From: Klebsiella phage KP13-16
Strand: one strand, 5' to 3'
DNA: 64,000 nucleotides
Sequence record: OP617741.1
The notes under the pieces are model-generated. The model saw nothing but the letters and a program-made list of their open reading frames with translations, was not told the origin of the DNA and made no database searches. Shown here one piece after another: positions 2,850-23,679 of the stretch. The translations under genes were made by a program, and so were the position numbers. How positions within the stretch are numbered: the first letter of the stretch is position 1; every line of letters begins with the position of its first letter.

Positions 2850-3626
2850 CTAATTTCCTAATTTTTGCAATGGAGATTTACCTTCAAGATGGTCTTCTAC
2901 AATCTTGATAAAGTTTTTGTTATTAAAAGCTTCAACAGCACCACAACGGAATTGTAACACTCCGTGAATATCGTATTGCTCTTGTTCAAGATAGTTGATT
3001 CCGGGATTTACAACCAAGACCTTAGTTCCACGCTTAACTGCTGGGAACAACTCCCAGTTGAAGTTGATTACAGTATTTGAACATCCAACAACAATAACCA
3101 TATCTTCTGAAGTCAGCCCATCAAGGGTAGTATATAACTCATGATAAGCCGGAGCATTCTCCCCAAAGAATATTACGTTTGGTTTGCACCATCCATAATC
3201 ATCAGGATCAATTTGTGCATATCCAACGTTGATTATCTTCTTAGGAGACCCAGCCTCTGTCTCAATGACAAGTTCTTTGAGATACCCATGAATGTACAGA
3301 GTATCTTCTTTCGGTACACCTGCACGTTCCAACAAATCATCGACGTTAGTCGTCATGTTGATAACTTGTCCAGGATAACGTTTGTACCACTCAGCAACAC
3401 GAAGGTGTGCAGCATTTGGATGTACTGTTGGCAACTCTGCACGACGCTTATTATAAAACATGTGTGTTTTATGATAAAAGTTTCCACGGAAAGAATGGAT
3501 GTTGCAAACCTCCTCAAGATCATATTCATCCCATAAAGCTTTCCCAGATTCAGTATCTGTGCGGAATGTACGTACACCACTCTCCGCAGAGAAACCAGCC
3601 CCACTTATTACTATAAGACGTCTCAT
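2850..3626 (-). CDS. Sir2-family NAD-dependent deacylase/NADase-like protein
   Basis: 258 aa; GAGxS motif ISGAGFSAESGVRTFR, TTNVDDL (TQNID-like), HG and CxxC-like segments typical of sirtuin/CobB fold. Confidence 0.65.
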   Translation of the reverse strand: MRRLIVISGAGFSAESGVRTFRTDTESGKALWDEYDLEEVCNIHSFRGNFYHKTHMFYNKRRAELPTVHPNAAHLRVAEWYKRYPGQVINMTTNVDDLLERAGVPKEDTLYIHGYLKELVIETEAGSPKKIINVGYAQIDPDDYGWCKPNVIFFGENAPAYHELYTTLDGLTSEDMVIVVGCSNTVINFNWELFPAVKRGTKVLVVNPGINYLEQEQYDIHGVLQFRCGAVEAFNNKNFIKIVEDHLEGKSPLQKLGN

Positions 3627-3846: not shown

Positions 3847-4272
3847 CTACTGTAATTTTAATGAGTTTCTAAGACGTCTCTCTTGAGTATCACGGATTTC
3901 CTGTGGGACGTTATGAATAGAATCATTTCCATGTCTATTTTCAACAACCAAACTAACAACTTTATACCCATACTCTTCAGCTAAGTCAATATATGGTTTA
4001 AGTTCTTTTTCAGTAGTTGTAGTGTTAGATACAATTATTTTTACCCAATTACCTAAACCATGAAAATTATCTTCCATGTACATTTTTACTTGATCTTGGC
4101 ACCATTTATGCGCTGCTTGGATATTTTCAGGTTTCCAATCGTAAACACCCTCTTCCGTGTAGTGAAATTTATCTGCTTCACAGATAGGCCACAAACCTTC
4201 TGCAAGCATGTCTGCCACTGTAGACTTACCAGCACCAGACACACCGCGAAGGATAATCAAAGTCTTTTCCAT
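3847..4272 (-). CDS. polynucleotide 5'-hydroxyl kinase (T4 Pnk kinase-domain-like, no fused phosphatase)
   Basis: 141 aa; P-loop LRGVSGAGKSTVA aligns with T4 Pnk ILTIGCPGSGKSTWA; IIVSNTT and LAEEYGYKV align with T4 Pnk ISDTN and FAKEYGWKV. Confidence 0.55.
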   Translation of the reverse strand: MEKTLIILRGVSGAGKSTVADMLAEGLWPICEADKFHYTEEGVYDWKPENIQAAHKWCQDQVKMYMEDNFHGLGNWVKIIVSNTTTTEKELKPYIDLAEEYGYKVVSLVVENRHGNDSIHNVPQEIRDTQERRLRNSLKLQ

Positions 4273-4281
4273 CTCCTCTCC

Positions 4282-4632
4282 TCAGTAATTGTTTCTTAAG
4301 ATCGTGATACGATACTTCAAGAAGCTCTCTTTTGCAAGCATGAACTTTTGTGCCGCAGAAGGGTTAGACGTGTGGACATAGAGTTTAGCATCATCCACAG
4401 GAAGTTTCCCATACACAAGCTTCTCTTCCAAGGCTAACAGGCAGTCATAGCCCTCCATTTCTGAATCTTCGCCGAGGTCATTATCGAAATGCCACTCTGT
4501 GACATAACGATAGAACTTTGACCGATTATCAAGAAAATCCATAAACTTCTGAGAGGTCTTGAACCACAATGCGCCAGGATAACCGTAGTCTTTTGGATCT
4601 CTTAAGTCATCAAGCCATACAACCATTAACAT
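4282..4632 (-). CDS. hypothetical protein
   Basis: 116-aa ORF between kinase and RNA ligase genes. Confidence 0.3.
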   Translation of the reverse strand: MLMVVWLDDLRDPKDYGYPGALWFKTSQKFMDFLDNRSKFYRYVTEWHFDNDLGEDSEMEGYDCLLALEEKLVYGKLPVDDAKLYVHTSNPSAAQKFMLAKESFLKYRITILRNNY

Positions 4633-4832
4633 TTCTCCTCAAAATAAGCCTCGATCCATTTACGACGATATTGAGCATCTTTAACTGCCCATTCCTCTTT
4701 TTCAAAGGCCCAGCGTAAATAATCAATAAGGTTATAATATTCTTCATCAATACGCTTTTTAGCTTCTTTTGGATTGTCCCAGATCATATCCCACTTGTTC
4801 TGTCCACCTCGCATCAGGAACTTCTTCGCCAA
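4626..4832 (-). CDS. hypothetical protein
   Basis: 68-aa ORF immediately 3' of the RNA ligase ORF; track start codon is TTG, an ATG lies a few codons in. Confidence 0.25.
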   Translation of the reverse strand: MAKKFLMRGGQNKWDMIWDNPKEAKKRIDEEYYNLIDYLRWAFEKEEWAVKDAQYRRKWIEAYFEEKC

Positions 4833-4841
4833 GTAATGTGG

Positions 4842-5546
4842 TTACTTGATTTTAAGAAGCAGTTCGCTGTTTTCGTCATCTGTTCCGACATTACGGATAA
4901 CAAAACCTTCGTGAGTTACAGCCTTGGAATACTTGATCACATCACTGAAGAACATATTATGCCATTCAGGACGCTTTGCTCCGATCACTTCAGCTATGCG
5001 ATCAAGACGATATTCTTCAAGCATTGTCCCATTTAAGGCTAAGTCTCGCATACCAATCAAATATGCACCCTCTTCCTCCTCAACAATGTGAGGATCGCTA
5101 CTGTCACAAATTTCAAAGATGAAAGTATAGTCCTCTGGAAATGCAACAAGATCTAATTTCATCTTTTCAAGATATTTCCGTGCCAGATCAGAGAACTCAG
5201 AATCCAAGGTTCCTGTCGTTGATACAAGAAGTTTTTCACCACGTACCGCAGCAGTTGCCATAAATCCGTTGACTTTACGAATGCAAACAACCTGCTGATC
5301 GAGTGGTAAGTCTGTTCCATTCTCGAAACGGTTAAAAATCTTCGTAAAAGGCCAGATAATAACGTTGTCTTCTGCATCAACAACCATACCACGACACTCA
5401 AGCAGACGTGAGTCTGTATGCCACAGGTTGTCCCAGAACACATTGTTCTTATATTTGAGCACAGAAAGACCAGCGAACGGGCCTTCGGTGTAAGTCTTTT
5501 TAGTCACCAGATTTTTAGCAACTAAGTCGTCTACGTTGAACTTCAT
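4842..5546 (-). CDS. RNA ligase, Rnl1 family (T4 RnlA-like adenylyltransferase core)
   Basis: 234 aa; LLECRGMVVD and WPFTKIFNRFEN match T4 Rnl1 ALECRGIMFE and RPMEKFFNLNEN; motif I KVNG (KxDG/NG), motif III-like FIFEI, motif IV EGFVIR, motif V LLKIK at the C-terminus. Confidence 0.6.
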   Translation of the reverse strand: MKFNVDDLVAKNLVTKKTYTEGPFAGLSVLKYKNNVFWDNLWHTDSRLLECRGMVVDAEDNVIIWPFTKIFNRFENGTDLPLDQQVVCIRKVNGFMATAAVRGEKLLVSTTGTLDSEFSDLARKYLEKMKLDLVAFPEDYTFIFEICDSSDPHIVEEEEGAYLIGMRDLALNGTMLEEYRLDRIAEVIGAKRPEWHNMFFSDVIKYSKAVTHEGFVIRNVGTDDENSELLLKIK

Positions 5547-5742
5547 TTTCTCTCCTTCGAGTAAGATTCTTCAAAAGTTTAAGCACTTCTTTTTGTGCTT
5601 CCTTCATATCATTGAAGTCATCATATTCGCTCATATCTAAATTGTCAACATAATCTTCAAGTTCACTCAGAAGAAAAATTACATTCTCAATAAGATCAGT
5701 ATCTTTATGCATCATCTGAACCAAAATTTTTGTGGTGGTCAA
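5515..5742 (-). CDS. hypothetical acidic protein
   Basis: 75-aa ORF, overlaps neighbours by a few codons. Confidence 0.25.
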   Translation of the reverse strand: MTTTKILVQMMHKDTDLIENVIFLLSELEDYVDNLDMSEYDDFNDMKEAQKEVLKLLKNLTRRRENEVQRRRLSC

Positions 5743-6271
5743 CCACTTTTATCTCACGACGCTCCATCTTAGCAATGATTTCATCAAAATGCAAGATCTT
5801 CCCTTGTGCATCCCAACCAACATCTAGCATTTTACCATATATTTCATCAGGAAAACTTCCATGGCTATGTCCATGAAGCATAATTGCACCTCTTCCTTGT
5901 TTATTCCATGAGGCAATAGGGTAATGACAAAGGACAAAGAATTTCTTACCATATTTAACTTCATCATAGTACTTAACTTCACCGTACTTCTCAAGAACTT
6001 CTCTATGCTTTGAATAATCATGGTTTCCAACGATGAATGTAATGTCACCGTTTAAACGAGAAGCAATGAGATCCGTTTCTTCTGGTGTCCCAAAGCAGAA
6101 ATCTCCAAGATGATACATTTTTGTACCAGGTGTTTTTGCTTTTTCATTCCAAGCTAAAATAAGACCTTCTGTCATTTCATGAAGTCTTTCCCAAGAACGA
6201 TATTTAGGACAAAACTCTGAAACTCTCTTATGAAGAAAATGCAGGTCTGAAGTTACATACATATTAAACAC
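5705..6271 (-). CDS. calcineurin-like metallophosphoesterase
   Basis: 188 aa; binuclear MPE motifs SDLHF, LGDFCFG, GNHD, GHSHG in canonical order. Confidence 0.6.
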   Translation of the reverse strand: MFNMYVTSDLHFLHKRVSEFCPKYRSWERLHEMTEGLILAWNEKAKTPGTKMYHLGDFCFGTPEETDLIASRLNGDITFIVGNHDYSKHREVLEKYGEVKYYDEVKYGKKFFVLCHYPIASWNKQGRGAIMLHGHSHGSFPDEIYGKMLDVGWDAQGKILHFDEIIAKMERREIKVVDHHKNFGSDDA

Positions 6272-8016: not shown

Positions 8017-8715
8017 TTAAGCAATTTTACGCCACTGATATACACCATACACTGAGTTTAAGAGATAAGCAATCCACATTACTAACACGACTGCTCCTCC
8101 ACCCTCATGATGCATTGTAGCCTGAATCCAAAGAACAACGGCAACAATGTTAACAATTACCCAAATATACCATTGTTCAGAGTAACGTAGTACCATTAAC
8201 ACTGTAGCTAGCACAGAGAGAATTGCTGTCGCAGAATCTAAGCCAGGAGAATATCCTTTCAACAAGGAAACACCATAAGCATAGGCTGCAATAACGATTA
8301 GTATGCCAACAGTAACAATGAGACGTTGTTGAGTTGTTAACCATTTCTTCACAACATCAGCCTTCTGTCCATCTTCAGAAAGCTTTAACTTTTGAGACCA
8401 AAGAATACCGCCAATTAACTGCAAAGGTGTAAACAATAGAGTATACATAATTGTTTCACCATACATTTTGTATGTGAATGAGATATATGCATACAATGCT
8501 GTTGCAACAAATCCCCAGTAGTAACTTGAGAGTTTACCTTTAGCAACAAGGATCGCACCAATGATCCCTGTAACAGAGGAGACAAATTCAACGAGAGTTG
8601 CACCCATAATTACAGATGTTGCTGCAATAGTTACAGAGCAAACAAAAAGCCAAAGATATTCTAACCTAGACCAACCATAGAAGTCAGTCAAAGTTGTTTT
8701 CAGATAAATATTCAT
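8017..8715 (-). CDS. pnuC: nicotinamide riboside transporter PnuC family
   Basis: 232 aa, about 7 predicted TM helices, Trp/Tyr-rich PnuC-like sequence; sits beside NadR-like gene. Confidence 0.65.
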   Translation of the reverse strand: MNIYLKTTLTDFYGWSRLEYLWLFVCSVTIAATSVIMGATLVEFVSSVTGIIGAILVAKGKLSSYYWGFVATALYAYISFTYKMYGETIMYTLLFTPLQLIGGILWSQKLKLSEDGQKADVVKKWLTTQQRLIVTVGILIVIAAYAYGVSLLKGYSPGLDSATAILSVLATVLMVLRYSEQWYIWVIVNIVAVVLWIQATMHHEGGGAVVLVMWIAYLLNSVYGVYQWRKIA

Positions 8716-9020
8716 TTTAACCCCTTGTGCGAAAGTTCTTGCATTAACTGTTCACCAGTCATTGTCTTACCAGAGACAACATCTTCTTGAGAGATTTCCA
8801 ATAACTTAATCAAAGCTTCAGTTTCTTTTTCCTCATCAACCAATTTGAATCCCCAAACAGAGCCATTCATTGGAATGGGAATTTTGTCAAGATCACCATT
8901 GTTATCTCGTAGTAACATACCGCCATTAGAAAAACCTTCAATAATGTAAATATCGTTAAGAGTATAAATATTATGTGTACTAGTACTACGGGTACATTTG
9001 ACACGATCACCTACTTTCAT
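8712..9020 (-). CDS. hypothetical protein
   Basis: 102-aa ORF between pnuC and nadR-like genes. Confidence 0.3.
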   Translation of the reverse strand: MKVGDRVKCTRSTSTHNIYTLNDIYIIEGFSNGGMLLRDNNGDLDKIPIPMNGSVWGFKLVDEEKETEALIKLLEISQEDVVSGKTMTGEQLMQELSHKGLK

Positions 9021-9034
9021 TCTACCTCCTCTTT

Positions 9035-10081
9035 TTAACTTCCTATAAGTTTTTTAATTTCTTTCATTGCTTCATTGAAGCGGTTTTCGTAAGTCCCACC
9101 AATTTGGATAACTGGACACTTCTCATACACTTTATAAACGTTGTATACAAAATTGTCAAGAACCTTTTGTGATTTTTCTCTGTCATCTTGTGTTGATTTT
9201 TTACGTAAAGGGTCATCTACCCAAGGGATGTCATTACGTAAGTACAAGACAAGATCATATTTCTCAGCAAAACAGATCTCAGATAGCAGTGGTGAATAGT
9301 GTTGCAAGTTATTAAATGTATTCATAGAAAAATCTGTCACAACTGCATTTGTATCACTCAACAAAATCTTGTTTGCATATGGCAAAAGTTCCTTTTCTTT
9401 CATCTTATGCTTCATAGCAACGTATACATAGTCTTCAGGCTTCATGTAAGCCTCTGTGAGTCCATATTCTTGCTCACAGATAGTTCGACCTACCTCCTCT
9501 ACAAAAACCGTCTGTAGAGCTTTAGAGAGCTTTTTAACTAGTGTTGATTTGCCAGTAGACTCTACACCAATGATACAAACTTTTTTCACATAGTGTTTTC
9601 TCATGGCTGGTGCAATAAAATCCCAGTACTTATAGGGATTATTTCTGATCATTGTTGCACTGATAGTCACTTCATCACGGTTAGCATCTACAACGATGTG
9701 CTCAGAGTCTGGAAAATTATCTTTAAGATACTTATCATAACTAGGTTCGCTGGTAAATACTTTATCGAAGTGTAGAGTTCTAGTCTTTTTCTTCAGCATA
9801 TTAGTAAACATTACTTCACCTTCTGGATAACCAGGAACAGCACTTTCATCAATGACATTAACGATGATGTTATTAAAATCTTTAAAGGTTTCAATCAAAG
9901 CTAAATGTCTGTTGGCTTTGGTTAAAGGTTCACTAACACTATGTTCTAATGTATCATTGAATTTTTGATCATAACTTAAGACCACATGCAATGTGTCAAC
10001 CAAAGCAGAAGCTTTGATCACCATGTTGATGTGTCCTAAGTGTAAAGGTGCAAACTTCCCAAAAATCAAACCAATAGTCAT
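9035..10081 (-). CDS. bifunctional NMN adenylyltransferase / ribosylnicotinamide kinase (NadR-like, no HTH domain)
   Basis: 348 aa; N-terminal nucleotidyltransferase motif GKFAPLHLGH (HxGH), C-terminal P-loop IGVESTGKSTL as in NadR kinase domain. Confidence 0.7.
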   Translation of the reverse strand: MTIGLIFGKFAPLHLGHINMVIKASALVDTLHVVLSYDQKFNDTLEHSVSEPLTKANRHLALIETFKDFNNIIVNVIDESAVPGYPEGEVMFTNMLKKKTRTLHFDKVFTSEPSYDKYLKDNFPDSEHIVVDANRDEVTISATMIRNNPYKYWDFIAPAMRKHYVKKVCIIGVESTGKSTLVKKLSKALQTVFVEEVGRTICEQEYGLTEAYMKPEDYVYVAMKHKMKEKELLPYANKILLSDTNAVVTDFSMNTFNNLQHYSPLLSEICFAEKYDLVLYLRNDIPWVDDPLRKKSTQDDREKSQKVLDNFVYNVYKVYEKCPVIQIGGTYENRFNEAMKEIKKLIGS

Positions 10082-10377
10082 TAATGGATCTCCACAATAT
10101 TTTTATCTAAATCTGAAGCTGTAACTTTATCAAGACTCTTCAGTGTGATCAAGCCTCTTTTGTCATAAAGTTTCATCACACTGGTGTACTGTTTGAAGAC
10201 ATCTTCAAAACTTCTTTCTGTTTCCGTTACCACTACAACAGGTTGACCATGGATTACAGAGAGTCTTACACTTCTTACCTGATCTAAGAACAAGACTTCT
10301 TCAGTGGTAGGTTTCTCTTTACGCATACGCTTGTTCGGTTTATCTACCACTGACATGATTGTAGTAAAATCTGACAT
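10081..10377 (-). CDS. hypothetical protein
   Basis: 98-aa ORF, last gene of the minus-strand block. Confidence 0.3.
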   Translation of the reverse strand: MSDFTTIMSVVDKPNKRMRKEKPTTEEVLFLDQVRSVRLSVIHGQPVVVVTETERSFEDVFKQYTSVMKLYDKRGLITLKSLDKVTASDLDKNIVEIH

Positions 10378-10652
10378 AAGTACCTCATAATTATTAATTT
10401 ATGTATAGATACTAACTATCTATTAGACTAAAGTCAAGATTATTTTTAACTTTACTATGTGATCAAAAGATGATAAAACATAAATTTAGATCACAAAACA
10501 ACTGTATAAATTTACATGTGATCTAAATTATATTAATTATTTATAATTAATAATATATAATCATAAGTTAGTCTATAAACTAGATCATAAGTTAGTATTG
10601 TGTGCCTTTTTGGGGACAATTAGGAATGTCTCTTTTTAGGGACAATTAGGTG

Positions 10653-10681
10653 TTGACACTGAAACTGTGAAGTGGTAAAAC
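10653..10681 (+). promoter_or_regulatory. sigma70-like promoter for the regulator-prs-nadV operon
   Basis: TTGACA (10653-10658), 17-nt spacer, TAAAAC; preceded by two 19-nt direct repeats CTTTTT(G/A)GGGACAATTAGG. Confidence 0.4.
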
Positions 10682-10714
10682 TTATAGAGTGAGATACAGG
10701 CAGGAGCAACTTGG

Positions 10715-11098
10715 ATGAAAATAAGGTTAGATGACAATGAGATTACAATAAAAGAGAACTCTTTTGTCTCTATCCCTGTCTACTGGGTTTTCGATAAGAG
10801 GTTGTCTGGTGGTGATTTACAAAGATTGATAAGATTATGGTGGAGATATGACTACTTTTGTCACTTGGCTAAGAAGAAAGACAAGCTTGCAGATTTGACT
10901 AAAGTGTTCTATCCTTCCCAACAAACATTGTGTGAATTACTTGGATTTGGGGAAAAATCAAGAACAAAAGTAACAGAGTTCTTGAAAAGGATGGAAGAGT
11001 ATGGTTATATACAAAGAATCAAGAGTGGTTTTGTAGACCAATCAGGTCATGCAAAACCAAGACATTACATAGTAGTTAATAGAGGAGATTTAAAATGA
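10715..11098 (+). CDS. putative winged-helix transcriptional regulator
   Basis: 127 aa; segment SQQTLCELLGFGEKSRTKVTEFLKRMEEYGYIQR looks like a MarR/wHTH recognition unit; first gene after a repeat-rich divergent region. Confidence 0.35.
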   Translation: MKIRLDDNEITIKENSFVSIPVYWVFDKRLSGGDLQRLIRLWWRYDYFCHLAKKKDKLADLTKVFYPSQQTLCELLGFGEKSRTKVTEFLKRMEEYGYIQRIKSGFVDQSGHAKPRHYIVVNRGDLK

Positions 11099-11895
11099 GT
11101 CTTGAACTTAGACTGAACAAACTTATTGTTCCTGTAGACCACTTTACGTTCAAAGGTGGTGAGGAGCAAGTGAAGATTGACTTGAACCATGTTCCGAAAG
11201 GTAGTATTGGTTTTGTTGATATTACTGCTAAAATCAAAAACTCGACTGACGTCATGGCATTAGCTATGTTAGTAGATGCATGTTCTCGCCTTGAGAATCT
11301 GGATGTTACTACAGAGTTTATTTTAAATTTACCCTACATCCCCTATGCTCGACAGGATCGTGTAATGCAGCCTGGTGAAGCTTTATCCATCAAAGTTTTC
11401 GCTAACATCATTAACTCACTCGGGTTTGATAAGGTAATTGTCGATGATCCGCATAGCGATGTATCCGCAGCACTTCTTAACAACGTTAAAATTCGTGGTC
11501 AGGATACTCTTGTTGCGGAATTCCATGAAGGTCTCGCTGGCAAAGATGTTGTTATCGTTGCCCCTGATGCTGGAGCACGTAAAAAAGCACAGAAAGTTTC
11601 CGACCGCCTACGCCTCCCTCTCGTGGAAGCTGGGAAAGTACGTGACCTGAAGACAAATGAAATTACCGGTACTGCTGTTTTCGGTGATGTTGAAGGCCGT
11701 GAGTGTGTTATTGTTGATGATATCTGTGATGGCGGTCGAACATTCATTGCCCTAGCACAAGTACTGAAGGCAAAAGGTGCAAAACGAGTTATTATTTACG
11801 TAACGCATGGCATTTTTTCCTACGGTAAAGAAGTTATCTACGAAGGTGGTGTGGATGAAATCTACGCTTATCATGATTGGACGGAGAACTTTTAA
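11095..11895 (+). CDS. ribose-phosphate pyrophosphokinase family enzyme (Prs or ADPR-pyrophosphate synthetase type)
   Basis: 266 aa; PYARQDR motif and PRPP-binding loop VIVDDICDGGRT; shorter than canonical Prs. Confidence 0.65.
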   Translation: MSLELRLNKLIVPVDHFTFKGGEEQVKIDLNHVPKGSIGFVDITAKIKNSTDVMALAMLVDACSRLENLDVTTEFILNLPYIPYARQDRVMQPGEALSIKVFANIINSLGFDKVIVDDPHSDVSAALLNNVKIRGQDTLVAEFHEGLAGKDVVIVAPDAGARKKAQKVSDRLRLPLVEAGKVRDLKTNEITGTAVFGDVEGRECVIVDDICDGGRTFIALAQVLKAKGAKRVIIYVTHGIFSYGKEVIYEGGVDEIYAYHDWTENF

Positions 11896-12106
11896 TGCAA
11901 ACATTTTTTGAGATCTATGCGGCATTGTTATTTAGCTTCCTGTTTTGCCTTTGGAGTACAAAAGGATACTTTAACTGGTTTATTAAAATTGCTCTTTTTA
12001 TCGGTGTGGTGTCTGGAATCATCATCAATTATCAAAATTTAGCTTGACATAAAAATGAACGGGTGTAAAATACACCCATCAAAACAAACAAAGGAGATAC
12101 AAAACA

Positions 12107-13791
12107 TGCTGCACAAAGAAAGCCCAATTGCTTTTGCTGATTTTTACAAACCTTCACATATCTCTATGTACGATAAACGTTCTGAGATTGTTCAGGATAA
12201 CATGACACCACGAAACGCAAAGCACTTCATTCACTTCGCTGATAACGACCAGCGTGTTATGATGGCAGGTCTTCAGGGATTCATTAAGTGGTTCCTTATC
12301 GACATGTTTAACGAAAACTTCTTCAAGAAAAGTAAAGAAGAAGCTATTGAACAGTACAAAGAAATTTGTGATCTGAGTATTGGTCCTAACATGGTTGAAA
12401 CTTGGGGATTTGAAAAGCTGCATGACCTTGGTTATCTGCCACTGGAAATCCGTTCGATTCCTGAAGGTACTCTGTCTCCGGTACAGGTTCCGCTGTTCAC
12501 CATTCAGAACACGCATCCTGATTTTTACTGGTTACCTAACTTCCTGGAAAGTGTGATCTCCGCAGAAACTTGGAAAACTATTACGACTGCAACTACGTTC
12601 TGGCAGTATCGCAAGCTGTCTGAAAAATGGGCTGCTGAGACTTGCGATAACAACTTGCATGTTCCTTTCCAGAACCACTGTTTCGCATATCGTGGTGAAT
12701 CTGGGACGCACGACGCAGCACAGAGTGAGTTTGGTCAACTGATCAACTCAATGGGTACTGATACTATCCCAGCAATTCTGTATGCAAATCGTTATTACAA
12801 CATGAAAGGCAAGTTCGTTGCTGGTTCTATTCCTGCATCTGAACACTCTGTTGCAACAACGAACATCGGTTTCATCGTTGGTCGTTTACAAGGCGAAAAC
12901 CCTGACCTGACTCTTGACGAAGCACGTTTCTTGGCTGAGGTTGAGTTCCTGCGTCGTTACATTACGGAAATTTTCCCTAAAGGTTTTGTTTCCTACGTGG
13001 CAGACAGTTATGACTTCTGGGCGATTATCACCAAAGCAGCAGCGATCCTGGAACAGGACATCATGGCCCGTGATGGTCGTGTAGTGTTCCGTCCTGACTC
13101 AGGCATCCCTGAGCATATCATTGCTGGCTATCGTAGCCTCGGTGAGTTTGATGACTGGTCTGATGCACACTCAGCACTACAGGAAGATTCAAATTCAGAA
13201 GTTGCCAAGATTGAAGGTAAATACTACCGGATTCTTGTTGACGATGAGAATAATGCCTACTTCGACTTCCAACCTTCAGGTCTTGAAGAACATGAGGTTA
13301 AAGGTGCTGTACAGTGTCTGTGGGAAATCTTTGGTGGTGAAGTTAACTCCAAAGGTTACAAAGTTCTTGATAGTCATGTTGGTCTGATTTACGGTGACTC
13401 CATCACTGTTGCTCGTGCAAAAGACATCTTTGAACGTTTGAAAGAAAAAGGTTTTGCATCCAGCAACATTGTTTACGGCGTCGGTTCTTTCACCACGCAG
13501 TACACAACTCGTGATTCACTGAGTATGGCTGTCAAAGCAACTGGTCTGGTTATTGATGGTCAGCAGATTATGATTGTCAAAGAACCGAAGACAGACCTTG
13601 GCAAGAAATCTGCGAAAGGTTTTCTGAAAGTTGTTCGCAACATGTTCGGTCAGTTAGAACTGATTGACAATTGCCAGCTTGAAGAGGTACAGTCTGACGA
13701 TAACGAGTTGCGTCGTGTGTTCTACAACGGCAAGCTAATTGTCGATGAAGACCTGACAACGATTCGTGAGCGAGCAGCTTCACAACTTTAA
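12107..13791 (+). CDS. nadV: nicotinamide phosphoribosyltransferase (NAMPT/NadV family)
   Basis: 561 aa from ATG 12107 (RBS AGGAG 12093-12097; track ORF starts earlier at 12055); length and sequence typical of NAMPT-family enzymes. Confidence 0.75.
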
Positions 13792-13902: not shown

Positions 13903-14145
13903 ATGGATAAACCCAATAACAATAATAAACCAACTTATAATTTTTATTTTAGATGTAAAGCCTGTGATGCCCCTCTTAACCACAATTCCTACAATGTCAA
14001 AAATGGTATAAATGAATCACCATACTGCTCCAGGTGTGCTTCATACTCTTTTGATAACTCAAACTCAGATCGAGAATATGAACATCAATACTTAAGCGAA
14101 CTAGATTTTTCTGGAAATGGAATAAAATCTGAAGATTTTGATTAA
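13903..14145 (+). CDS. hypothetical zinc-ribbon protein
   Basis: 80 aa; CKACDAP...CSRCASYS cysteine pairs. Confidence 0.3.
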   Translation: MDKPNNNNKPTYNFYFRCKACDAPLNHNSYNVKNGINESPYCSRCASYSFDNSNSDREYEHQYLSELDFSGNGIKSEDFD

Positions 14146-14227
14146 AATTTTAAAAACATACTTGACTTCAGTTTATGACTTTTGCTATAGTTCATTTCGA
14201 ACGAGTTAATAAACAAAGGAGTTAATT

Positions 14228-15667
14228 ATGTCTAAGCTGTTTGATGCATCCCGTAGTAAGTCCCAACTGACACTTAATGGTGCAGTTACTCATGAATCTT
14301 CACTGAATAAAAATGTGGATTTGTTTTTCCAGATTGGTACTTTACGTAAGAATCCAAATGTTGTTTCTGATGATCTTTTCTGGCAAGCTCTTAGTGAAGA
14401 TGCGGAAACTGCTGTACGTATTCTTCTATACTCCCGAGATATTCGCGGAGGTATGGGTGAAAGAAATATTTTTAGAAAAACATTTAAAAACATTTGTGAC
14501 CAGAATCCAAAACTCGCAACACGTTTGTTAGTTAAGATTCCAGAACTTGGTCGTTGGGACGATGTTCTTGAAGCTATTGGAACACCAGTTGAAAAAGAAG
14601 CCTTGCAGTTTATCGCTGACTGTTTAACAGATAAGACTAACGCAGGACTATGCGCAAAATGGATGCCACGTATGCGTGGAAATAACACAGTTAAAAATAA
14701 AAATAATGCAAAGGTACTTGCTAAATTTATGAAACTGAGTTATCAGGAATATAATAAACTCTTGTCATCTTTGTCTAATACTGTGGAACAGAGTCTTTCT
14801 CGCAAAGAATACGGTGCTATTGATTATAGCAAGCTGCCATCGCTTGCAGCAGCACGTTATCAGGCACTATTTAATCGTGTGGACAGTGAACGTTATGCAC
14901 AGTATCGTGAAAGCCTGATTAAAGAAGATGGACAAGCTAAGATCAATGCAGGTGCTGTTTATCCGTATGATATTGTAAAATCTTGTATGCACGGAGATAA
15001 GTCAGTAGCAAATGCCCAATGGAAAGCATTGCCAGATTATACTGAAGGTACAAGTGAAAACATTATCTGTTTATCTGATGTTTCTGGTTCTATGACATTC
15101 CCAGAGGCAAAAGTTTCTGGTGATATTTATGCTCTTCATGTAGGGATTGCTTTATCTCTTTACATTGCTGAACGTAATAAAGGTATCTTCAAAGATCAGA
15201 TGATGGTATATTCAACAAATCCTTATTTTATCGATGTAGGAAGTTCCTTGACTCTTGCACAGAAACTTGCTAAGGTACAAGAACATGTTGAGTATGGATC
15301 AACTGATATTATGAAAGCTTTTGCAAGAATTCTTGAGTTAGGTAAGAAACACAACTTGACACAAGAGGATATGCCTAGTAAAGTTATCGTATTCTCTGAT
15401 ATGGAATTTAACCAAGCCATTTCAGGTATGACAAACTTTGAGTCTATTGCTCTTATGTATAGTCAATCTGGATATACCTTGCCTCAGCTTGTTTTCTGGA
15501 ATCTTGCAGCCCATCAGAGAGGCAACGTGCCAGTTCAAGTAGGTCAGAAAGGTACAGCATTGGTTTCAGGATTTTCACCAGCGATTATGAAAGGACTCTT
15601 GACAGGTGAGTTAGAACCTGTTAAAGTTATGCAGAAGTTAGTTAACGTACCACGTTATGATTTCTAA
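14228..15667 (+). CDS. vWA (MIDAS) domain protein with N-terminal alpha-helical domain; candidate Ro60/Rsr-like (TROVE/DUF2828-type) RNA-binding protein
   Basis: 479 aa; MIDAS DxSGS motif CLSDVSGSMTF plus downstream GSTD and FSDME elements; long helical N-domain; sits immediately upstream of the Y-RNA-like elements, mirroring bacterial rsr-yrl operons. TROVE assignment not verifiable by eye. Confidence 0.4.
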   Translation: MSKLFDASRSKSQLTLNGAVTHESSLNKNVDLFFQIGTLRKNPNVVSDDLFWQALSEDAETAVRILLYSRDIRGGMGERNIFRKTFKNICDQNPKLATRLLVKIPELGRWDDVLEAIGTPVEKEALQFIADCLTDKTNAGLCAKWMPRMRGNNTVKNKNNAKVLAKFMKLSYQEYNKLLSSLSNTVEQSLSRKEYGAIDYSKLPSLAAARYQALFNRVDSERYAQYRESLIKEDGQAKINAGAVYPYDIVKSCMHGDKSVANAQWKALPDYTEGTSENIICLSDVSGSMTFPEAKVSGDIYALHVGIALSLYIAERNKGIFKDQMMVYSTNPYFIDVGSSLTLAQKLAKVQEHVEYGSTDIMKAFARILELGKKHNLTQEDMPSKVIVFSDMEFNQAISGMTNFESIALMYSQSGYTLPQLVFWNLAAHQRGNVPVQVGQKGTALVSGFSPAIMKGLLTGELEPVKVMQKLVNVPRYDF

Positions 15668-15689
15668 ATAATTAAAAATAGGGGTTGAC

Positions 15690-15720
15690 AAGGTGTTAGC
15701 CCCTATGCTAAAGTAAATAC
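15690..15720 (+). promoter_or_regulatory. putative sigma70-like promoter ahead of the Y-like RNA/tRNA array
   Basis: TTGACA inside hairpin TAGGGG...CCCCTA, 17-nt spacer, TAAAGT. Confidence 0.3.
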
Positions 15721-15755
15721 ATAGTTTAGAAACAAAGATTTATCTATAAAAGGTT

Positions 15756-15780
15756 CTTGAAGATTTACAGCAAATCTAAA
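15756..15780 (+). repeat. stem+TTTACAGCAAAT motif element E1 (no tRNA module)
   Basis: GAAG-ATTTACAGCAAATCT; hairpin AGATTT-ACAGC-AAATCT. Confidence 0.4.
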
Positions 15781-15824
15781 ACAACATTACACTTGAAATG
15801 TAGCGAAAAGAATATCTTCTGAAT

Positions 15825-15864
15825 CTTTTATAAATAAATCTTGGTAAGAAGAAATACAGCAATT
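15825..15864 (+). repeat. stem+motif element E2 (no tRNA module)
   Basis: TCTTCT (15825-15830) pairs with AGAAGA (15847-15852), followed by AATACAGCAATT. Confidence 0.4.
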
Positions 15865-15904
15865 TTAAAATTTCATGCATAGAAAATAAATTCTTCTGCC
15901 GACA

Positions 15905-16047
15905 ATTTTATCAAAGAAGCTTTACAGCAAATAAAATCTAATGGGAACTTTGGGTCGTAGGTTCAAATCCTGCTTCCCCGAACAAGTAACGGGGAATAGC
16001 TCAGTCTGGTAGAGCAAAAGTATAGAAAAATAGCTTCTGATAATTAA
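15905..16047 (+). ncRNA. Y-RNA-like (YrlA-like) permuted tRNA mimic 1
   Basis: Order: helix strand AGAAGCT (15915-15921), motif TTTACAGCAAAT, ACTTT-GGGTC-GTAGG-TTCAAAT-CCTGC-TTCCCCG-A, 8-nt loop, CGGGGAA-TA-GCTC-AGTCTGGTA-GAGC-A-AAAGT, A-rich, helix strand AGCTTCT (16032-16038). Acceptor strands 7/7 complementary, anticodon-stem strands 5/5. Extended bulged helix TTATC/GATAA. Confidence 0.5.
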
Positions 16048-16059
16048 ATTAGCCGACGT

Positions 16060-16205
16060 AGTTATACAGCAAAATATACTGGAAAATAGTAAAACTCCCG
16101 ACATATGTCTTCGCTGGTTCGAATCCAGTCTTCCTCCACCAAACATTCTATGGAGGAATAGGGAAGTGGTTAAACCCAGGAGTCCAAAAACAAAACTACT
16201 GGCAA
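16060..16205 (+). ncRNA. Y-RNA-like permuted tRNA mimic 2 (type-II tRNA-like, long variable arm)
   Basis: GCC..GTAGTT (16062-16073) + ATACAGCAAAAT, then ACTCC, variable arm CGACATATGTCTTCG, T-arm CTGG-TTCGAAT-CCAG, TTCCTCC-A-CCA, 9-nt linker, GGAGGAA-TA-GGG..CCC-A-GGAGT, A-rich, then AACTAC-T-GGC (16194-16203) pairing with the leader. Confidence 0.5.
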
Positions 16206-16208
16206 ACA

Positions 16209-16336
16209 AATTCGAGAAGGTTTTCAGCAACTAATATCTTTCACTGGTAATGAAGAGTTGTCGGTTCGAGTCCGGCTCAGGTCTTTAGACTTGATAGTTT
16301 AATCGGGAAAACGTTATGATAAATACCTTCTGAATA
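16209..16336 (+). ncRNA. Y-RNA-like permuted tRNA mimic 3
   Basis: Leader AGAAGGT (16215-16221) + TTTTCAGCAACT, T-arm GTCGG-TTCGAGT-CCGGC, TCAGGTC-T, 3-nt loop TTA, GACTTGA-TA-GTTT...AAAC, then ATAAATA + ACCTTCT (16325-16331) complementary to leader; anticodon-like stem not resolved. Confidence 0.4.
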
Positions 16337-16343
16337 GTATTAA

Positions 16344-16419
16344 GCTCCAATAGCACAACAGGCAGTGCAGTTCCCTTGTAAGGATCAGGTTGGGAGTTCG
16401 ATTCTCTCTTGGAGCACCA
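16344..16419 (+). tRNA. tRNA-Thr(TGT)
   Basis: 76 nt; acceptor GCTCCAA/TTGGAGC, D-arm GCAC/GTGC, anticodon loop CTTGTAA, T-loop TTCGATT, encoded CCA. Confidence 0.7.
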
Positions 16420-16616
16420 AATTTGCTCTCCTGTAGAGACCTTAGGGCTTGCAGGATTTACGTGTGGCGTATCAGAGCAAACTAAATGAGAAGGCCGGGG
16501 ACGCCCTGCTAAAGCCGTCCATCTGAGTAGGTCTAAGATTAAGTATGTGAGGAAATTTATTGCTTGCATTAAAAACTCCGCTTAAAGACATTCACTACAA
16601 AGGGGCGCAAAAATTT

Positions 16617-16692
16617 GGGGTCGCATGTACTAAGGTAGCGAGGGAGGTTTGCACCTTTCCTGTAAAGGGTTCAATTCCCTTCGACTCCACCA
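16617..16692 (+). tRNA. tRNA-Ala(TGC)
   Basis: 76 nt; acceptor GGGGTCG/CGACTCC (one G-T), anticodon loop TTTGCAC, T-arm AAGGG-TTCAATT-CCCTT, CCA. Confidence 0.55.
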
Positions 16693-16907
16693 AATTTGTT
16701 AGACTGCTAACAAGCTCTGGACTACCGCAGGCGAGATGGGTTCACGGGATTAAAATACCGTCTAGGGAGCAACAATTTATTGAAAAGAATTATGCAAGAT
16801 GATGTATCTCGAAACAAACATCGGAAGTGCTATCCGGTAATGCTGCCAATGTATGTTTGTGGGGTGTAGGTATTCAGAGTCACGATCTCCATCTTGCACC
16901 TAATAAT

Positions 16908-16984
16908 TGGGGATTCGCCAAGTTGGTTAAGGCACAGGACTTTGATTCCTGTATACATGTGTTCGAATCACATATCCCCTGCCA
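16908..16984 (+). tRNA. tRNA-Gln(TTG)
   Basis: 77 nt; anticodon arm CAGGA-CTTTGAT-TCCTG, T-arm ATGTG-TTCGAAT-CACAT, disc G + CCA; 1-72 T-T mismatch. Confidence 0.55.
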
Positions 16985-16993
16985 AATTATTAT

Positions 16994-17082
16994 GTGGGAA
17001 TAGCACCGTAGAGGTAGCGGCGTTGACTGTAAATCAACTTTCCGAAAGGAATCGGGTGGTTCGACTCCATCTTCCCACACCA
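16994..17082 (+). tRNA. tRNA-Tyr(GTA)
   Basis: 89 nt type II; acceptor GTGGGAA/TTCCCAC, anticodon arm GTTGA-CTGTAAA-TCAAC, long variable arm TTTCCGAAAGGAATC, CCA. Confidence 0.7.
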
Positions 17083-17088
17083 AATTAA

Positions 17089-17165
17089 GCGTCTGGGGCT
17101 GGCTAGGTAATGGTACTCCCCTGTCACGGGAGAGAATGCGGGATCGTAACCCGTCGGACGCGCCA
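17089..17165 (+). tRNA. tRNA-Asp(GTC)
   Basis: 77 nt; acceptor GCGTCTG/CGGACGC, anticodon arm CTCCC-CTGTCAC-GGGAG, T-arm GCGGG-ATCGTAA-CCCGT (non-canonical T-loop), CCA. Confidence 0.5.
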
Positions 17166-23463: not shown

Positions 23464-23539
<76 letters not shown>

Positions 23540-23562
23540 AAATTTTTAAGGAGAATAAAAAT

Positions 23563-23679
23563 ATGAAAGATCAATTTGATGGTTTTATTGGTTATGGTGA
23601 AGGAATCTTTAGTGATGAGTGGTATCACGATGATGAGAGACCAGATCTTATCAAATCTGAAGAAAATTGGGGTTTTTAA
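23563..23679 (+). CDS. small hypothetical protein
   Basis: 38 aa MKDQFDGFIGYGEGIFSDEWYHDDERPDLIKSEENWGF; RBS AAGGAG upstream. Confidence 0.2.
   Translation: MKDQFDGFIGYGEGIFSDEWYHDDERPDLIKSEENWGF

Follow-up and report, generated by a model that had tools for sequence, protein, structure and literature searches.

Klebsiella phage KP13-16 (sequence record OP617741.1) carries, within the 64,000-nucleotide stretch analysed here (the window), the gene of a protein whose modelled fold resembles that of Ro60, followed on the same strand by a series of small structured RNAs and a tRNA array. The nearest relative is Klebsiella myophage vB_KpM_FBKp34 (Stephanstirmvirinae), which matches positions 14228-16143 at 97.9% identity and whose counterpart of the protein is 99% identical. 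The RNA part of the module consists of five tandem units, the first of which begins 85 nt past the stop codon of the protein gene on the plus strand, together with a tRNA that carries the same element as an insert. This element, here called the handle, is a short closing helix adjoining a conserved motif; in units 1-3 the helix is of 6-7 bp and the motif is U-W-C-A-G-C-A-A. The main features are as follows.

14228-15667, plus strand: gene of the 479-residue Ro60-like protein, with a DUF2828 helical N-domain and a DUF7788 von Willebrand factor A (vWA) domain containing a metal-ion-dependent adhesion site (MIDAS); open reading frame confirmed
15752-15825, plus strand: short unit a, YrlB-like, with handle helix GAAGAT/ATCTTC and TTACAGCAA, a small internal hairpin and no tRNA-like domain
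15841-15902, plus strand: short unit b, with AGAAGAA/TTCTTCT and ATACAGCAA and no tRNA parts
15915-16041, plus strand: unit 1, in which a handle (AGAAGCT/AGCTTCT and TTACAGCAA) encloses a circularly permuted tRNA-like domain whose acceptor hairpin has 7 bp
16052-16203, plus strand: unit 2, in which a handle (GTAGTT/AACTAC plus GCC/GGC) encloses a tRNA mimic that is permuted and class-II-like
16215-16334, plus strand: unit 3, a handle (AGAAGGT/ACCTTCT and TTTCAGCAA) closing a permuted tRNA-like domain
17172-17285, plus strand: tRNA-Asp(GUC), 114 nt, identified from its sequence, with the handle as a 38-nt insert (17199-17236)
16344-18548, plus strand: tRNA array (ARAGORN, Rfam), beginning 9 nt past unit 3 and presumably co-transcribed with it; given as context

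The protein matches DUF2828 and DUF7788 in Pfam above cut-offs, with a weak VWA_CoxE match as the only other, and matches PHROG 850 (‘RNA-binding protein’) over its full length (residues 1-479; 3.7e-148). Its MIDAS motif (DxSxS...T...D) is complete, D284, S286, S288, T359 and D391 all being invariant among 36 homologues, and in the alignment from a profile search against the PDB its DVSGSM is aligned to the DVSASM of Ro60. An AlphaFold2 model built from the 36 homologues (predicted local distance difference test score 85.8, predicted template modelling score 0.84) places a helical, HEAT-like ring domain before a C-terminal vWA domain, the arrangement of the Ro60 family. When this model was compared with the PDB by Foldseek, the top 11 matches, with full-length alignments at E 5e-10 to 4e-7, were without exception Ro60/TROVE structures, and proteins sharing the vWA domain alone ranked after them, at E>1e-3. 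This similarity of fold is established here and, since sequence searches of the PDB were uninformative, fold comparison alone ties the protein to Ro60. As modelled, the protein is Ro60-like at the level of fold and lies outside the TROVE sequence family. A preliminary description of the locus had called it a Ro60/Rsr-like vWA protein, which holds for the ring-plus-vWA fold, the complete MIDAS and DVSGSM, and does not extend to sequence, for which neither Pfam nor the PDB profile search gives a significant TROVE match.

The family of homologues is large and mostly phage-borne, with more than 6500 members found. A homologue is present in 709 of 50,697 GenBank phage records, including Felixounavirus, Listeria P100-like, Staphylococcus, Enterococcus, Vibrio and Campylobacter phages and mycobacteriophages, and 185,579 species genomes yielded only 282 homologue loci, mainly on contigs of metagenome-assembled genomes (MAGs). 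The mycobacteriophage homologues are annotated as ‘Ro-like RNA binding protein’, and one of them also has the DUF2828 and DUF7788 combination. Literature found under the name ‘DUF2828’ was confined to plant and tardigrade papers. The N-domain contains three invariant arginine-rich motifs, R70-D-x-R73-G-G-x-G-E-R79, G108-R-x-D-D and K144-W-x-P-R148 (residues 70-79, 108-112 and 144-148), which, judged from sequence conservation, are candidate RNA-contact residues.

In units 1-3 the tRNA parts are inverted: the T arm comes first, followed by the 3' acceptor strand, a loop, the 5' acceptor strand and the D arm. The preliminary description had reported three such inverted units at the head of the tRNA array, and every sequence feature that it listed is present within the refined boundaries given above; it understated the extent of the module, having missed units a and b and the handle in tRNA-Asp. 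In unit 1, AGAAGCT and TTACAGCAA are followed by the 3' strand of the anticodon stem (ACTTT), a 5-nt variable loop, the T arm GTAGGTTCAAATCCTGC (15957-15973) and the acceptor hairpin TTCCCCG-AACAAGTAA-CGGGGAA with its 9-nt loop (15974-15996). TA, the D arm GCTCAGTCTGGTAGAGC, AAAGT, ATAGAAAAAT and the 3' handle arm AGCTTCT complete the unit, the D-arm segment at 15997-16015 reading TAGCTCAGTCTGGTAGAGC. Unit 2 has a long variable-arm hairpin, a T arm at 16114-16128 and the acceptor CTTCCTCC-ACCA-AACATTCTAT-GGAGGAA, in which an encoded ACCA lies directly 3' of the 3' acceptor strand. Unit 3 has its T arm at 16260-16276 and the acceptor TCAGGTC-TTTA-GACTTGA. The acceptor strands, which had been described as perfectly complementary throughout, are so in units 1 and 2, and in unit 3 they contain one G-U pair; the split anticodon-stem strands pair as claimed in units 1 (ACTTT/AAAGT) and 2 (ACTCC/GGAGT).

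In the minimum free energy (MFE) fold of unit 1 (z -2.7) the closing helix, the T and D arms and the acceptor hairpin are all formed, and MFE folding is weaker for unit 2 (z -1.5) and unit 3 (z -0.7). Scores with covariance model R1 are 101.4, 72.4 and 89.4 bits for units 1, 2 and 3, respectively. Short units a and b carry the same signature of helix plus TACAGCAA as units 1-3. In unit a the closing helix is recovered by MFE folding and the R1 score is 28.8 bits; unit b is a descriptor match whose closing helix is likewise found by MFE, with orthologue variants that include TTCCGCAA and TACCGCAA. The string TACAGCAA occurs four times inside 310 nt and 11 times in the 64 kb, where 3.2 occurrences are expected. 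That the motif might instead mark promoters, as TTTACA...TACACT of unit a could suggest, was considered and rejected: the invariant part is CAGCAA and not TTTACA, GC-rich mycobacteriophage units have GACAGCAA or CACAGCAA, and covariation of the flanking sequences as RNA helices is confined to one strand.

The architecture of units 1-3, with an anticodon-stem-like helix connecting a T arm, a closed acceptor-like stem and a D arm to a terminal stem, is that of bacterial YrlA RNAs, and the units lie within ~4 kb of the Ro60-like gene on its strand, as YrlA does. At Rfam gathering thresholds (Rfam 15), the window yields only tRNAs and the units are uncalled. In E-value mode, the YrlA family (RF02553; gathering score 69 bits) aligns with unit 1 end to end (model positions 1-114; 39.7 bits) and with unit 3 in part (25.8 bits), unit 2 being unmatched. 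Relatives score 37.9-47.1 bits, below the gathering score, and across 30 related loci searched in E-value mode no Rfam family other than sub-threshold YrlA matches these RNAs; matches to Dicty Class I RNA and the rpsL leader in the same mode were discarded as chance. The place of the YrlA motif GNCGAAN0-1G, the proposed contact of Rsr, is taken in the phage units by U-W-C-A-G-C-A-A. Thus the identification with YrlA-type Y RNAs in the preliminary description stands for the tRNA-mimic architecture and not for the Rfam threshold or the GNCGAAN0-1G motif. A literature search for the ACAGCAA motif together with Ro60 returned nothing relevant.

Units 1-3 are also uncalled by ARAGORN and by the Rfam tRNA model (RF00005) at threshold, and the sub-threshold tRNA matches across them are spurious (18.5-19.3 bits only). 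They do resemble the permuted tRNA genes of Cyanidioschyzon merolae in that the 3' half is encoded ahead of the 5' half and the leader pairs with the trailer. Were they true permuted tRNA genes, maturation would require cleavage, ligation by the phage Rnl1 and Pnk enzymes, and end processing, and the phage does have kinase, phosphoesterase and Rnl1-type ligase genes, as well as the ACCA encoded in unit 2. However, circularization of the units would give no complete anticodon arm and no 7-nt anticodon loop, and there is no bulge-helix-bulge motif: the joined ends would form a 6-7-bp helix (7 bp in the tRNA-like reading) with conserved internal loops of ~10 and ~25 nt (~35 nt in all), so that no anticodon and no amino-acid identity can be assigned. 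In place of the intron-like spacer of the algal genes, the junction is a conserved module predicted to be of the protein-binding type. The short units share the handle without any tRNA parts, and a non-permuted RNA in a related locus, described below, holds the same module in place of its anticodon loop. On these grounds we consider it exceedingly improbable that the units are permuted tRNA genes.

Related phages (homologous loci are designated L followed by a number) preserve the module. Loci at 81%, 72%, 64% and 61% protein identity share the order of hairpin with an embedded promoter-like site, two short units, permuted tRNA-like units and tRNAs; orthologues of unit a occur in L001, L082, L084, L085 and L087, and of unit 3 in L082, L084, L085 and L087. 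The acceptor of unit 1 changes in a compensatory manner in L082, from TTCCCCG/CGGGGAA to TCTCCCG/CGGGAGA, and the unit 2 orthologue at L084 4690-4833 has an acceptor (CCTTCCA/TGGAAGG) and an anticodon stem (TCTCA/TGAGA) that are wholly different yet complementary. The covarying leader/trailer helix noted earlier from the window is borne out, compensatory changes in related phages occurring in the closing helix as well.

When 21 tRNA-like units were aligned with MAFFT without guidance and the alignment was folded with RNAalifold, the closing helix, T arm and D arm were recovered, with 95% of cells paired and double changes in 13 of 15 pairs; none of 500 shuffles reached the observed value, and slid controls were 35-50% paired. 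A covariance model made from this alignment gave 72 matches (E<=0.01) in 697 kb, all on the strand of the gene. Three of its matches (window 18272-18350 and 23480-23568, and L019 4944-5069) are likely artefacts that run from the T arm of one tRNA into the D arm of the next. Among 66 distinct matches of the model the closing helix is 97.4% paired, the three inner pairs using CG, GC, AU and UA, a figure that reflects loci related to one another and a descriptor selection and model fitting that both favour pairing. The RNA architecture and its covariation are established by these data. The consensus of the handle over the 66 sequences is 5'-A-G-R-N-N-N-N, W-U-W-C-A-G-C-A-A, a variable interior and N-N-N-N-Y-C-U-G-3'. 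The motif, which is single-stranded and adjoins the 5' helix strand without a gap, is near-invariant at its U, C, G, C and A, as is the G at the 3' end.

These comparisons also bear on whether the units are functionless, scrambled tRNA pseudogenes produced by T-arm recombination in the array. Such recombination looks to have occurred here: FBKp34 (L001 7837-7920) is without ~920 bp corresponding to window 16143-17061, with a junction in GGTTCGA at which unit 2 passes, within its T arm, into the T arm and 3' end of tRNA-Tyr, and the deletion has removed half of unit 2, unit 3, tRNA-Thr, a tRNA-Ala-like gene, tRNA-Gln and most of tRNA-Tyr. In addition, the ACCA that follows the 3' acceptor strand of unit 2 resembles a tRNA-tRNA junction, and in L019 the covariance model can span two adjacent handle-bearing tRNAs. 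Nevertheless, the permuted architecture is conserved at 31-81% protein identity with compensatory changes in the acceptor, anticodon-stem and closing helices, and complementary acceptor strands within one unit would not be expected from the chance junction of two different tRNAs. The pseudogene explanation, already disfavoured, is very improbable.

The handle is not confined to permuted domains. In the window, the insert in tRNA-Asp(GUC) consists of the hairpin AACTTCT/AGAAGTT followed by TTTACAGCA and is located between the D stem and the anticodon stem; ARAGORN calls the tRNA only after the insert is deleted, and the FBKp34 annotation lists the same gene as a 114-nt tRNA-Asp. Locus L019 has the same design in tRNA-Gly(UCC) (5025-5137), the handle in both cases standing at position 26 of an otherwise intact tRNA. 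An inverse layout is found at L019 4895-5015, where a loop-closed handle replaces the anticodon loop of a tRNA scaffold with normal ends and ACCA. This RNA and unit 1 are circular permutations of one fold, and their joining strands correspond (GUAGAAAAACG and AUAGAAAAAU; UAUUCAGCACUCAAAUUCUCAAUGGUAA and UUACAGCAAAUAAAAUCUAAUGGGA). On a Ruminococcus MAG contig, L162 1397-1500 has a tRNA-like domain in normal order between the handle strands. In Escherichia phage Bas63, four handle units occupy gaps between tRNAs, and one of them contains a permuted tRNA mimic; mycobacteriophage Nicholas has three immediately 3' of the gene, the middle one being YrlA-like (37.9 bits); and Listeria phage P200 (L091) has three in tandem directly upstream of its homologue. 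Across these RNAs the handle is constant and the cargo variable, the latter comprising small hairpins, permuted tRNA mimics, a normal-order tRNA-like domain and tRNA scaffolds.

Several further observations concern these loci. At least seven handle units stand in tandem upstream of the gene on the Ruminococcus contig (L162 930-1940), and one of them has the variant motif GGCAGCCAC. An extra handle unit with a different structured interior (...CAAUUGGUGAAA...hairpins...) occurs at L085 5500-5600, L084 5790-5890 and L087 4985-5105 and is absent from the window. Phage transfer-messenger RNAs (tmRNAs) score above threshold at L050 5616-6089 (70.9 bits) and L068 6729-7220 (85.5 bits), 1-2 kb downstream of the DUF2828 gene and handle RNAs. 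In P200, the DUF2828 gene is followed at a distance of 1.3 kb, on the same strand, by an RtcB-type RNA ligase gene (L091 6351-7562), which echoes Salmonella rsr-yrlBA-rtcBA.

Association of the handle with the gene was quantified using a strict descriptor, comprising a helix of at least 7 bp with at most one G-U pair, the motif CNGCA[AC] and a G after the 3' arm; a first descriptor with a 6-bp helix had proved too loose (1.9x enrichment only). Strict matches are 16-23x enriched within 300-1500 nt downstream of the gene on its strand, and some of the ‘background’ matches sit upstream of the gene on the same strand. The proportion of CNGCA[AC] occurrences that have a closing helix of at least 7 bp followed by G is 44.5% downstream of homologous genes, 4.2% elsewhere and 3.9% in shuffled sequence (Fisher 3e-47, from loci that are not independent). 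Eighty loci from bacterial and archaeal assemblies (32-42% protein identity) served as an independent set: 58 of them have units on the strand of the gene (113 units in all), and 28 units were found on the opposite strand. The co-occurrence and co-orientation of gene and handle are established, their pairing recurs in hundreds of phages, and the order of Ro-like gene, Y-like RNAs and tRNA array given in the preliminary description is as found, all on one strand and directly after the gene.

The same linkage bears on the possibility that the handle is a processing or stability signal of phage tRNA and other non-coding transcripts, read by a host RNase or another phage factor, with its adjacency to the gene a matter of operon history. 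The window units do lie in a polycistronic RNA operon, ahead of and between tRNAs, and a short helix (6-9 bp) ending in a conserved CU-G could provide a cleavage context. Yet in 43 of 60 viral loci no tRNA lies within 3 kb, and handle units are nonetheless kept directly after the stop codon in many of these, so that the handle tracks the gene and not the tRNAs. Moreover, the pairing with the gene spans phages of Proteobacteria, Actinobacteria and Firmicutes down to ~31% protein identity, with units either upstream or downstream, and the handle is found inside mature-looking tRNAs that a cleavage signal would destroy. We therefore regard a general processing signal as unlikely.

The following systems are the closest known. 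Bacterial Rsr with YrlA and YrlB (Salmonella rsr-yrlBA-rtcBA; M. smegmatis; PMC4201824; RF02553) likewise combines a ring-plus-vWA gene with several small RNAs on the same strand, one class having a T arm, a closed acceptor-like stem and a D arm joined to a terminal protein-binding stem, and a second class being shorter and lacking the full tRNA mimic. M. smegmatis YrlA has a 7-bp acceptor stem, as in the phage units, and is cleaved by RNase P, which predicts such cleavage of the latter, and RNA-repair genes are nearby in both settings (RtcB in Listeria phage P200; Rnl1/Pnk in the window). In contrast to the bacterial system, the phage protein is DUF2828/DUF7788 and not Pfam TROVE, the phage RNAs score 26-47 bits against the gathering score of 69, their conserved element is U-W-C-A-G-C-A-A after the 5' strand with CU-G at the 3' end and not GNCGAAN0-1G, and at least five tandem units head a tRNA array, with the handle also inside real tRNAs. 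Metazoan Ro60 with Y RNAs (PDB 1yvp) is more remote, with ~13-15% sequence identity, the Y-RNA motif GGUCCGA in a bulged helix, and no tRNA mimicry of the type in the phage units.

Phages have been connected with such systems before, contrary to the earlier statement that a phage Ro/Y-RNA system had not been characterized. Chen et al. (2014; PMC4201824) had reported YrlA from 22 phages. Thermus phage phiLo encodes a Ro60 and Yrl1/Yrl2 RNAs (Hu et al. 2025; PMC12135203; PDB 9kop, 9l5y) for which the structure has been solved and the function tested: the protein binds its Yrl RNAs and host polynucleotide phosphorylase (PNPase) and attenuates the latter. The KP13-16 protein has no detectable sequence similarity to the phiLo protein, which was not found at E<=10 in the PDB profile search; the phiLo RNAs are described as stem-bulge-stem, and the binding of PNPase is a phiLo result. 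In Escherichia phage Bas63 (JohannRWettstein), gp130 counters the Ppl defence (bioRxiv 10.1101/2024.10.10.617714). The KP13-16 protein matches it over the full length (51% identity, E 1e-164), and its gene occupies the same position, immediately ahead of the tRNA array; anti-Ppl activity is demonstrated for Bas63 only. Its authors surmised that Y RNAs might be present among the annotated tRNAs, whereas the handle RNAs of Bas63 lie in unannotated gaps. In Listeria phage CKA15, very high transcription is seen in three unannotated regions that lie on the strand of its homologue and within 2 kb upstream, and this homologue was also found in virions (PMC12282133). P200, whose three handle units are likewise just upstream of the homologue, is related to this phage. 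One homologue, Bas63 gp130, is a proven counter-defence factor, and two papers guessed at nearby ‘Y RNAs’ without finding them.

We consider it likely that the KP13-16 locus is a divergent phage module of the Ro60/Y-RNA type whose ribonucleoprotein modulates host RNA nucleases or anti-phage defences. Action against host nucleases or defences is the likeliest role because Bas63 gp130 counters Ppl, because the Ro60 and Yrl RNAs of the Thermus phage attenuate host PNPase, and because neighbouring genes serve NAD salvage and RNA repair. The core idea of the preliminary description, a Ro-like gene with YrlA-like tRNA mimics, was largely right in kind.

A number of results weigh against this interpretation. 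Pfam TROVE (PF05731) is unmatched by the protein sequence, phmmer of the single protein against the PDB gave no match, and the best Ro60 match of the 36-sequence profile (1yvp) was at E 0.54 and covered the vWA part only. The units do not reach the YrlA gathering threshold (39.7 bits at best), and G-N-C-G-A-A is absent from their 5' parts. Unit 3 and the short units have weak thermodynamic z-scores, and many of the sequences used for covariation were chosen by a descriptor that requires the helix or were fitted to the model, which inflates the pairing statistics. As half of unit 2 and the whole of unit 3 are gone from FBKp34, individual units are dispensable. Finally, plaquing on Ppl hosts is restored by gp130 alone, whether expressed from a plasmid or by T7 (bioRxiv 10.1101/2024.10.10.617714), and hence the anti-Ppl activity, at least, needs no phage RNAs.

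The last result invites a reading in which protein and RNAs are independent, the protein acting by itself as a counter-defence factor, as gp130 does against Ppl, and the tRNA-like RNAs serving as free decoys or substrates of tRNA-targeting nucleases or tRNA enzymes. The presence of the Listeria homologue in virions would fit, as would the known ability of phage tRNAs to counter tRNA-cleaving defences. Independence leaves unexplained, however, why it is the conserved handle that travels with the gene and not the tRNA-like cargo, including units without a tRNA-like part, and characterized Ro60 proteins, that of the Thermus phage included, bind cognate RNAs encoded nearby. We give this reading a low probability.

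If the locus does encode a Ro60/Y-RNA-type ribonucleoprotein, binding of the handle by the protein, processing of the RNAs and their function may be envisaged by analogy. The handle would be the docking site for the Ro60-like protein, as the Ro60-binding stem is in Y RNAs, and the interior would be exchangeable cargo, consisting in the window of two small hairpins (YrlB-like) and three permuted tRNA-like domains (YrlA-like) that are connected to the handle via the anticodon stem, with the handle also grafted into tRNA-Asp(GUC). The RNAs would be excised from a transcript starting at the promoter-like site at 15685-15714. The 7-bp acceptor hairpins are expected to be substrates of RNase P, as in M. 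smegmatis YrlA, and their cleavage would leave RNAs in two pieces with ends like those of tRNAs; in unit 2 the ACCA is already encoded. Such tRNA-like cargo could then recruit or decoy enzymes that recognize tRNAs.

The promoter candidates and neighbouring genes are as follows.

14162-14191, plus strand: sigma-70-like promoter candidate of the protein gene, TTGACT-18-TATAGT (10/12 matches in a consensus scan)
15685-15714, plus strand: putative promoter of the RNA operon, TTGACA-18-TAAAGT with TG (10/12 matches in a consensus scan)
3847-6271, minus strand: RNA-repair-type genes (Pfam; context, with a conjectural link to the module)
3847-4272, minus strand: AAA_33 (Pnk-like) kinase (Pfam AAA_33, 1e-8)
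4842-5546, minus strand: Rnl1-type RNA ligase (Pfam RNA_lig_T4_1, 8e-11)
5705-6271, minus strand: metallophosphoesterase (Pfam Metallophos, 3e-7)
8017-8715, minus strand: PnuC-type nicotinamide mononucleotide transporter, NAD salvage cluster
9035-10081, minus strand: NadR-like adenylyltransferase/kinase, NAD salvage cluster
11095-11895, plus strand: phosphoribosyl pyrophosphate (PRPP) synthetase, NAD salvage cluster
12055-13791, plus strand: Nampt, NAD salvage cluster
2850-3626, minus strand: Sir2-family gene

The FBKp34 annotation places a promoter at the position equivalent to the first candidate. The second is embedded in a hairpin, TAGGGG...CCCCTA, immediately 3' of the protein stop codon, and this layout of a hairpin with TTGACA is conserved in L082, L084, L085 and L087 and in Bas63. 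A scan of 14100-16500, which includes unit 3 and the first tRNA, found no terminator-like site. The kinase, phosphoesterase and ligase genes, which the preliminary description had correctly reported, lie ~9 kb upstream of the module, and the module itself sits between the NAD salvage cluster (8017-13791), directly upstream of the Ro-like gene, and the tRNA array. Nampt and PRPP synthetase genes are also upstream of the Ro-like gene in L084 and L085, and Nampt in L082 and L087. The region as a whole, with its NAD salvage cluster, Sir2 gene and Ro-like gene, may be a counter-defence island.

Within the array, a tRNA-Ala(UGC)-like gene at 16617-16692, with G3:U70 and an encoded CCA, is missed by ARAGORN and by the Rfam tRNA model at threshold, Rfam giving only tmRNA end segments (31.6 bits, sub-threshold); related Klebsiella phages have a tRNA-Ala annotated at this position. 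Non-coding stretches to which no gene was assigned lie between tRNAs at 16420-16616 and 16693-16907. Positions 16415-16695, which include the first of them, are ~93% identical in other Klebsiella phages, and 16643-16850 gives a weak, sub-threshold match to permuted tmRNA (23.4 bits). A TnpB/IS605 OrfB-type gene (Cas12f1-like TNB, OrfB_IS605) is inserted within the tRNA region at 19531-20790, and in FBKp34 a gene for an IS200/IS605-family ‘transposase accessory protein’ lies downstream of the tRNA array.

Set against Rfam 15 and the literature open to searching, the new elements are the definition of candidate RNA partners for the DUF2828 branch, the distinct handle motif, and the modularity of handle and cargo, including handle-tagged tRNAs. 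The candidate partner RNAs have a simple signature, strong covariation and tight linkage to the gene, and lie outside the coverage of Rfam, and the mechanism of phage Ro60-like ribonucleoproteins is now approachable with defined RNAs and with point and compensatory mutants. Many ‘gaps’ in phage tRNA arrays are likewise open to re-annotation. More tentatively, and as a reading that we hold less likely than not, DUF2828 proteins and handle RNAs may constitute a large, hitherto undefined class of phage ‘handle-and-cargo’ ribonucleoproteins, in which one docking module, the AG...CU-G helix with UWCAGCAA, is combined with interchangeable cargo in the form of permuted or normal-order tRNA mimics, small hairpins or complete tRNAs. 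The handle-tagged true tRNAs suggest a means by which phages could tether tRNAs to a protein ring. If such a class exists, the ring would display tRNA bodies as decoys or sensors for host defences that target tRNAs or, alternatively, would escort damaged tRNAs to the repair enzymes of the phage.

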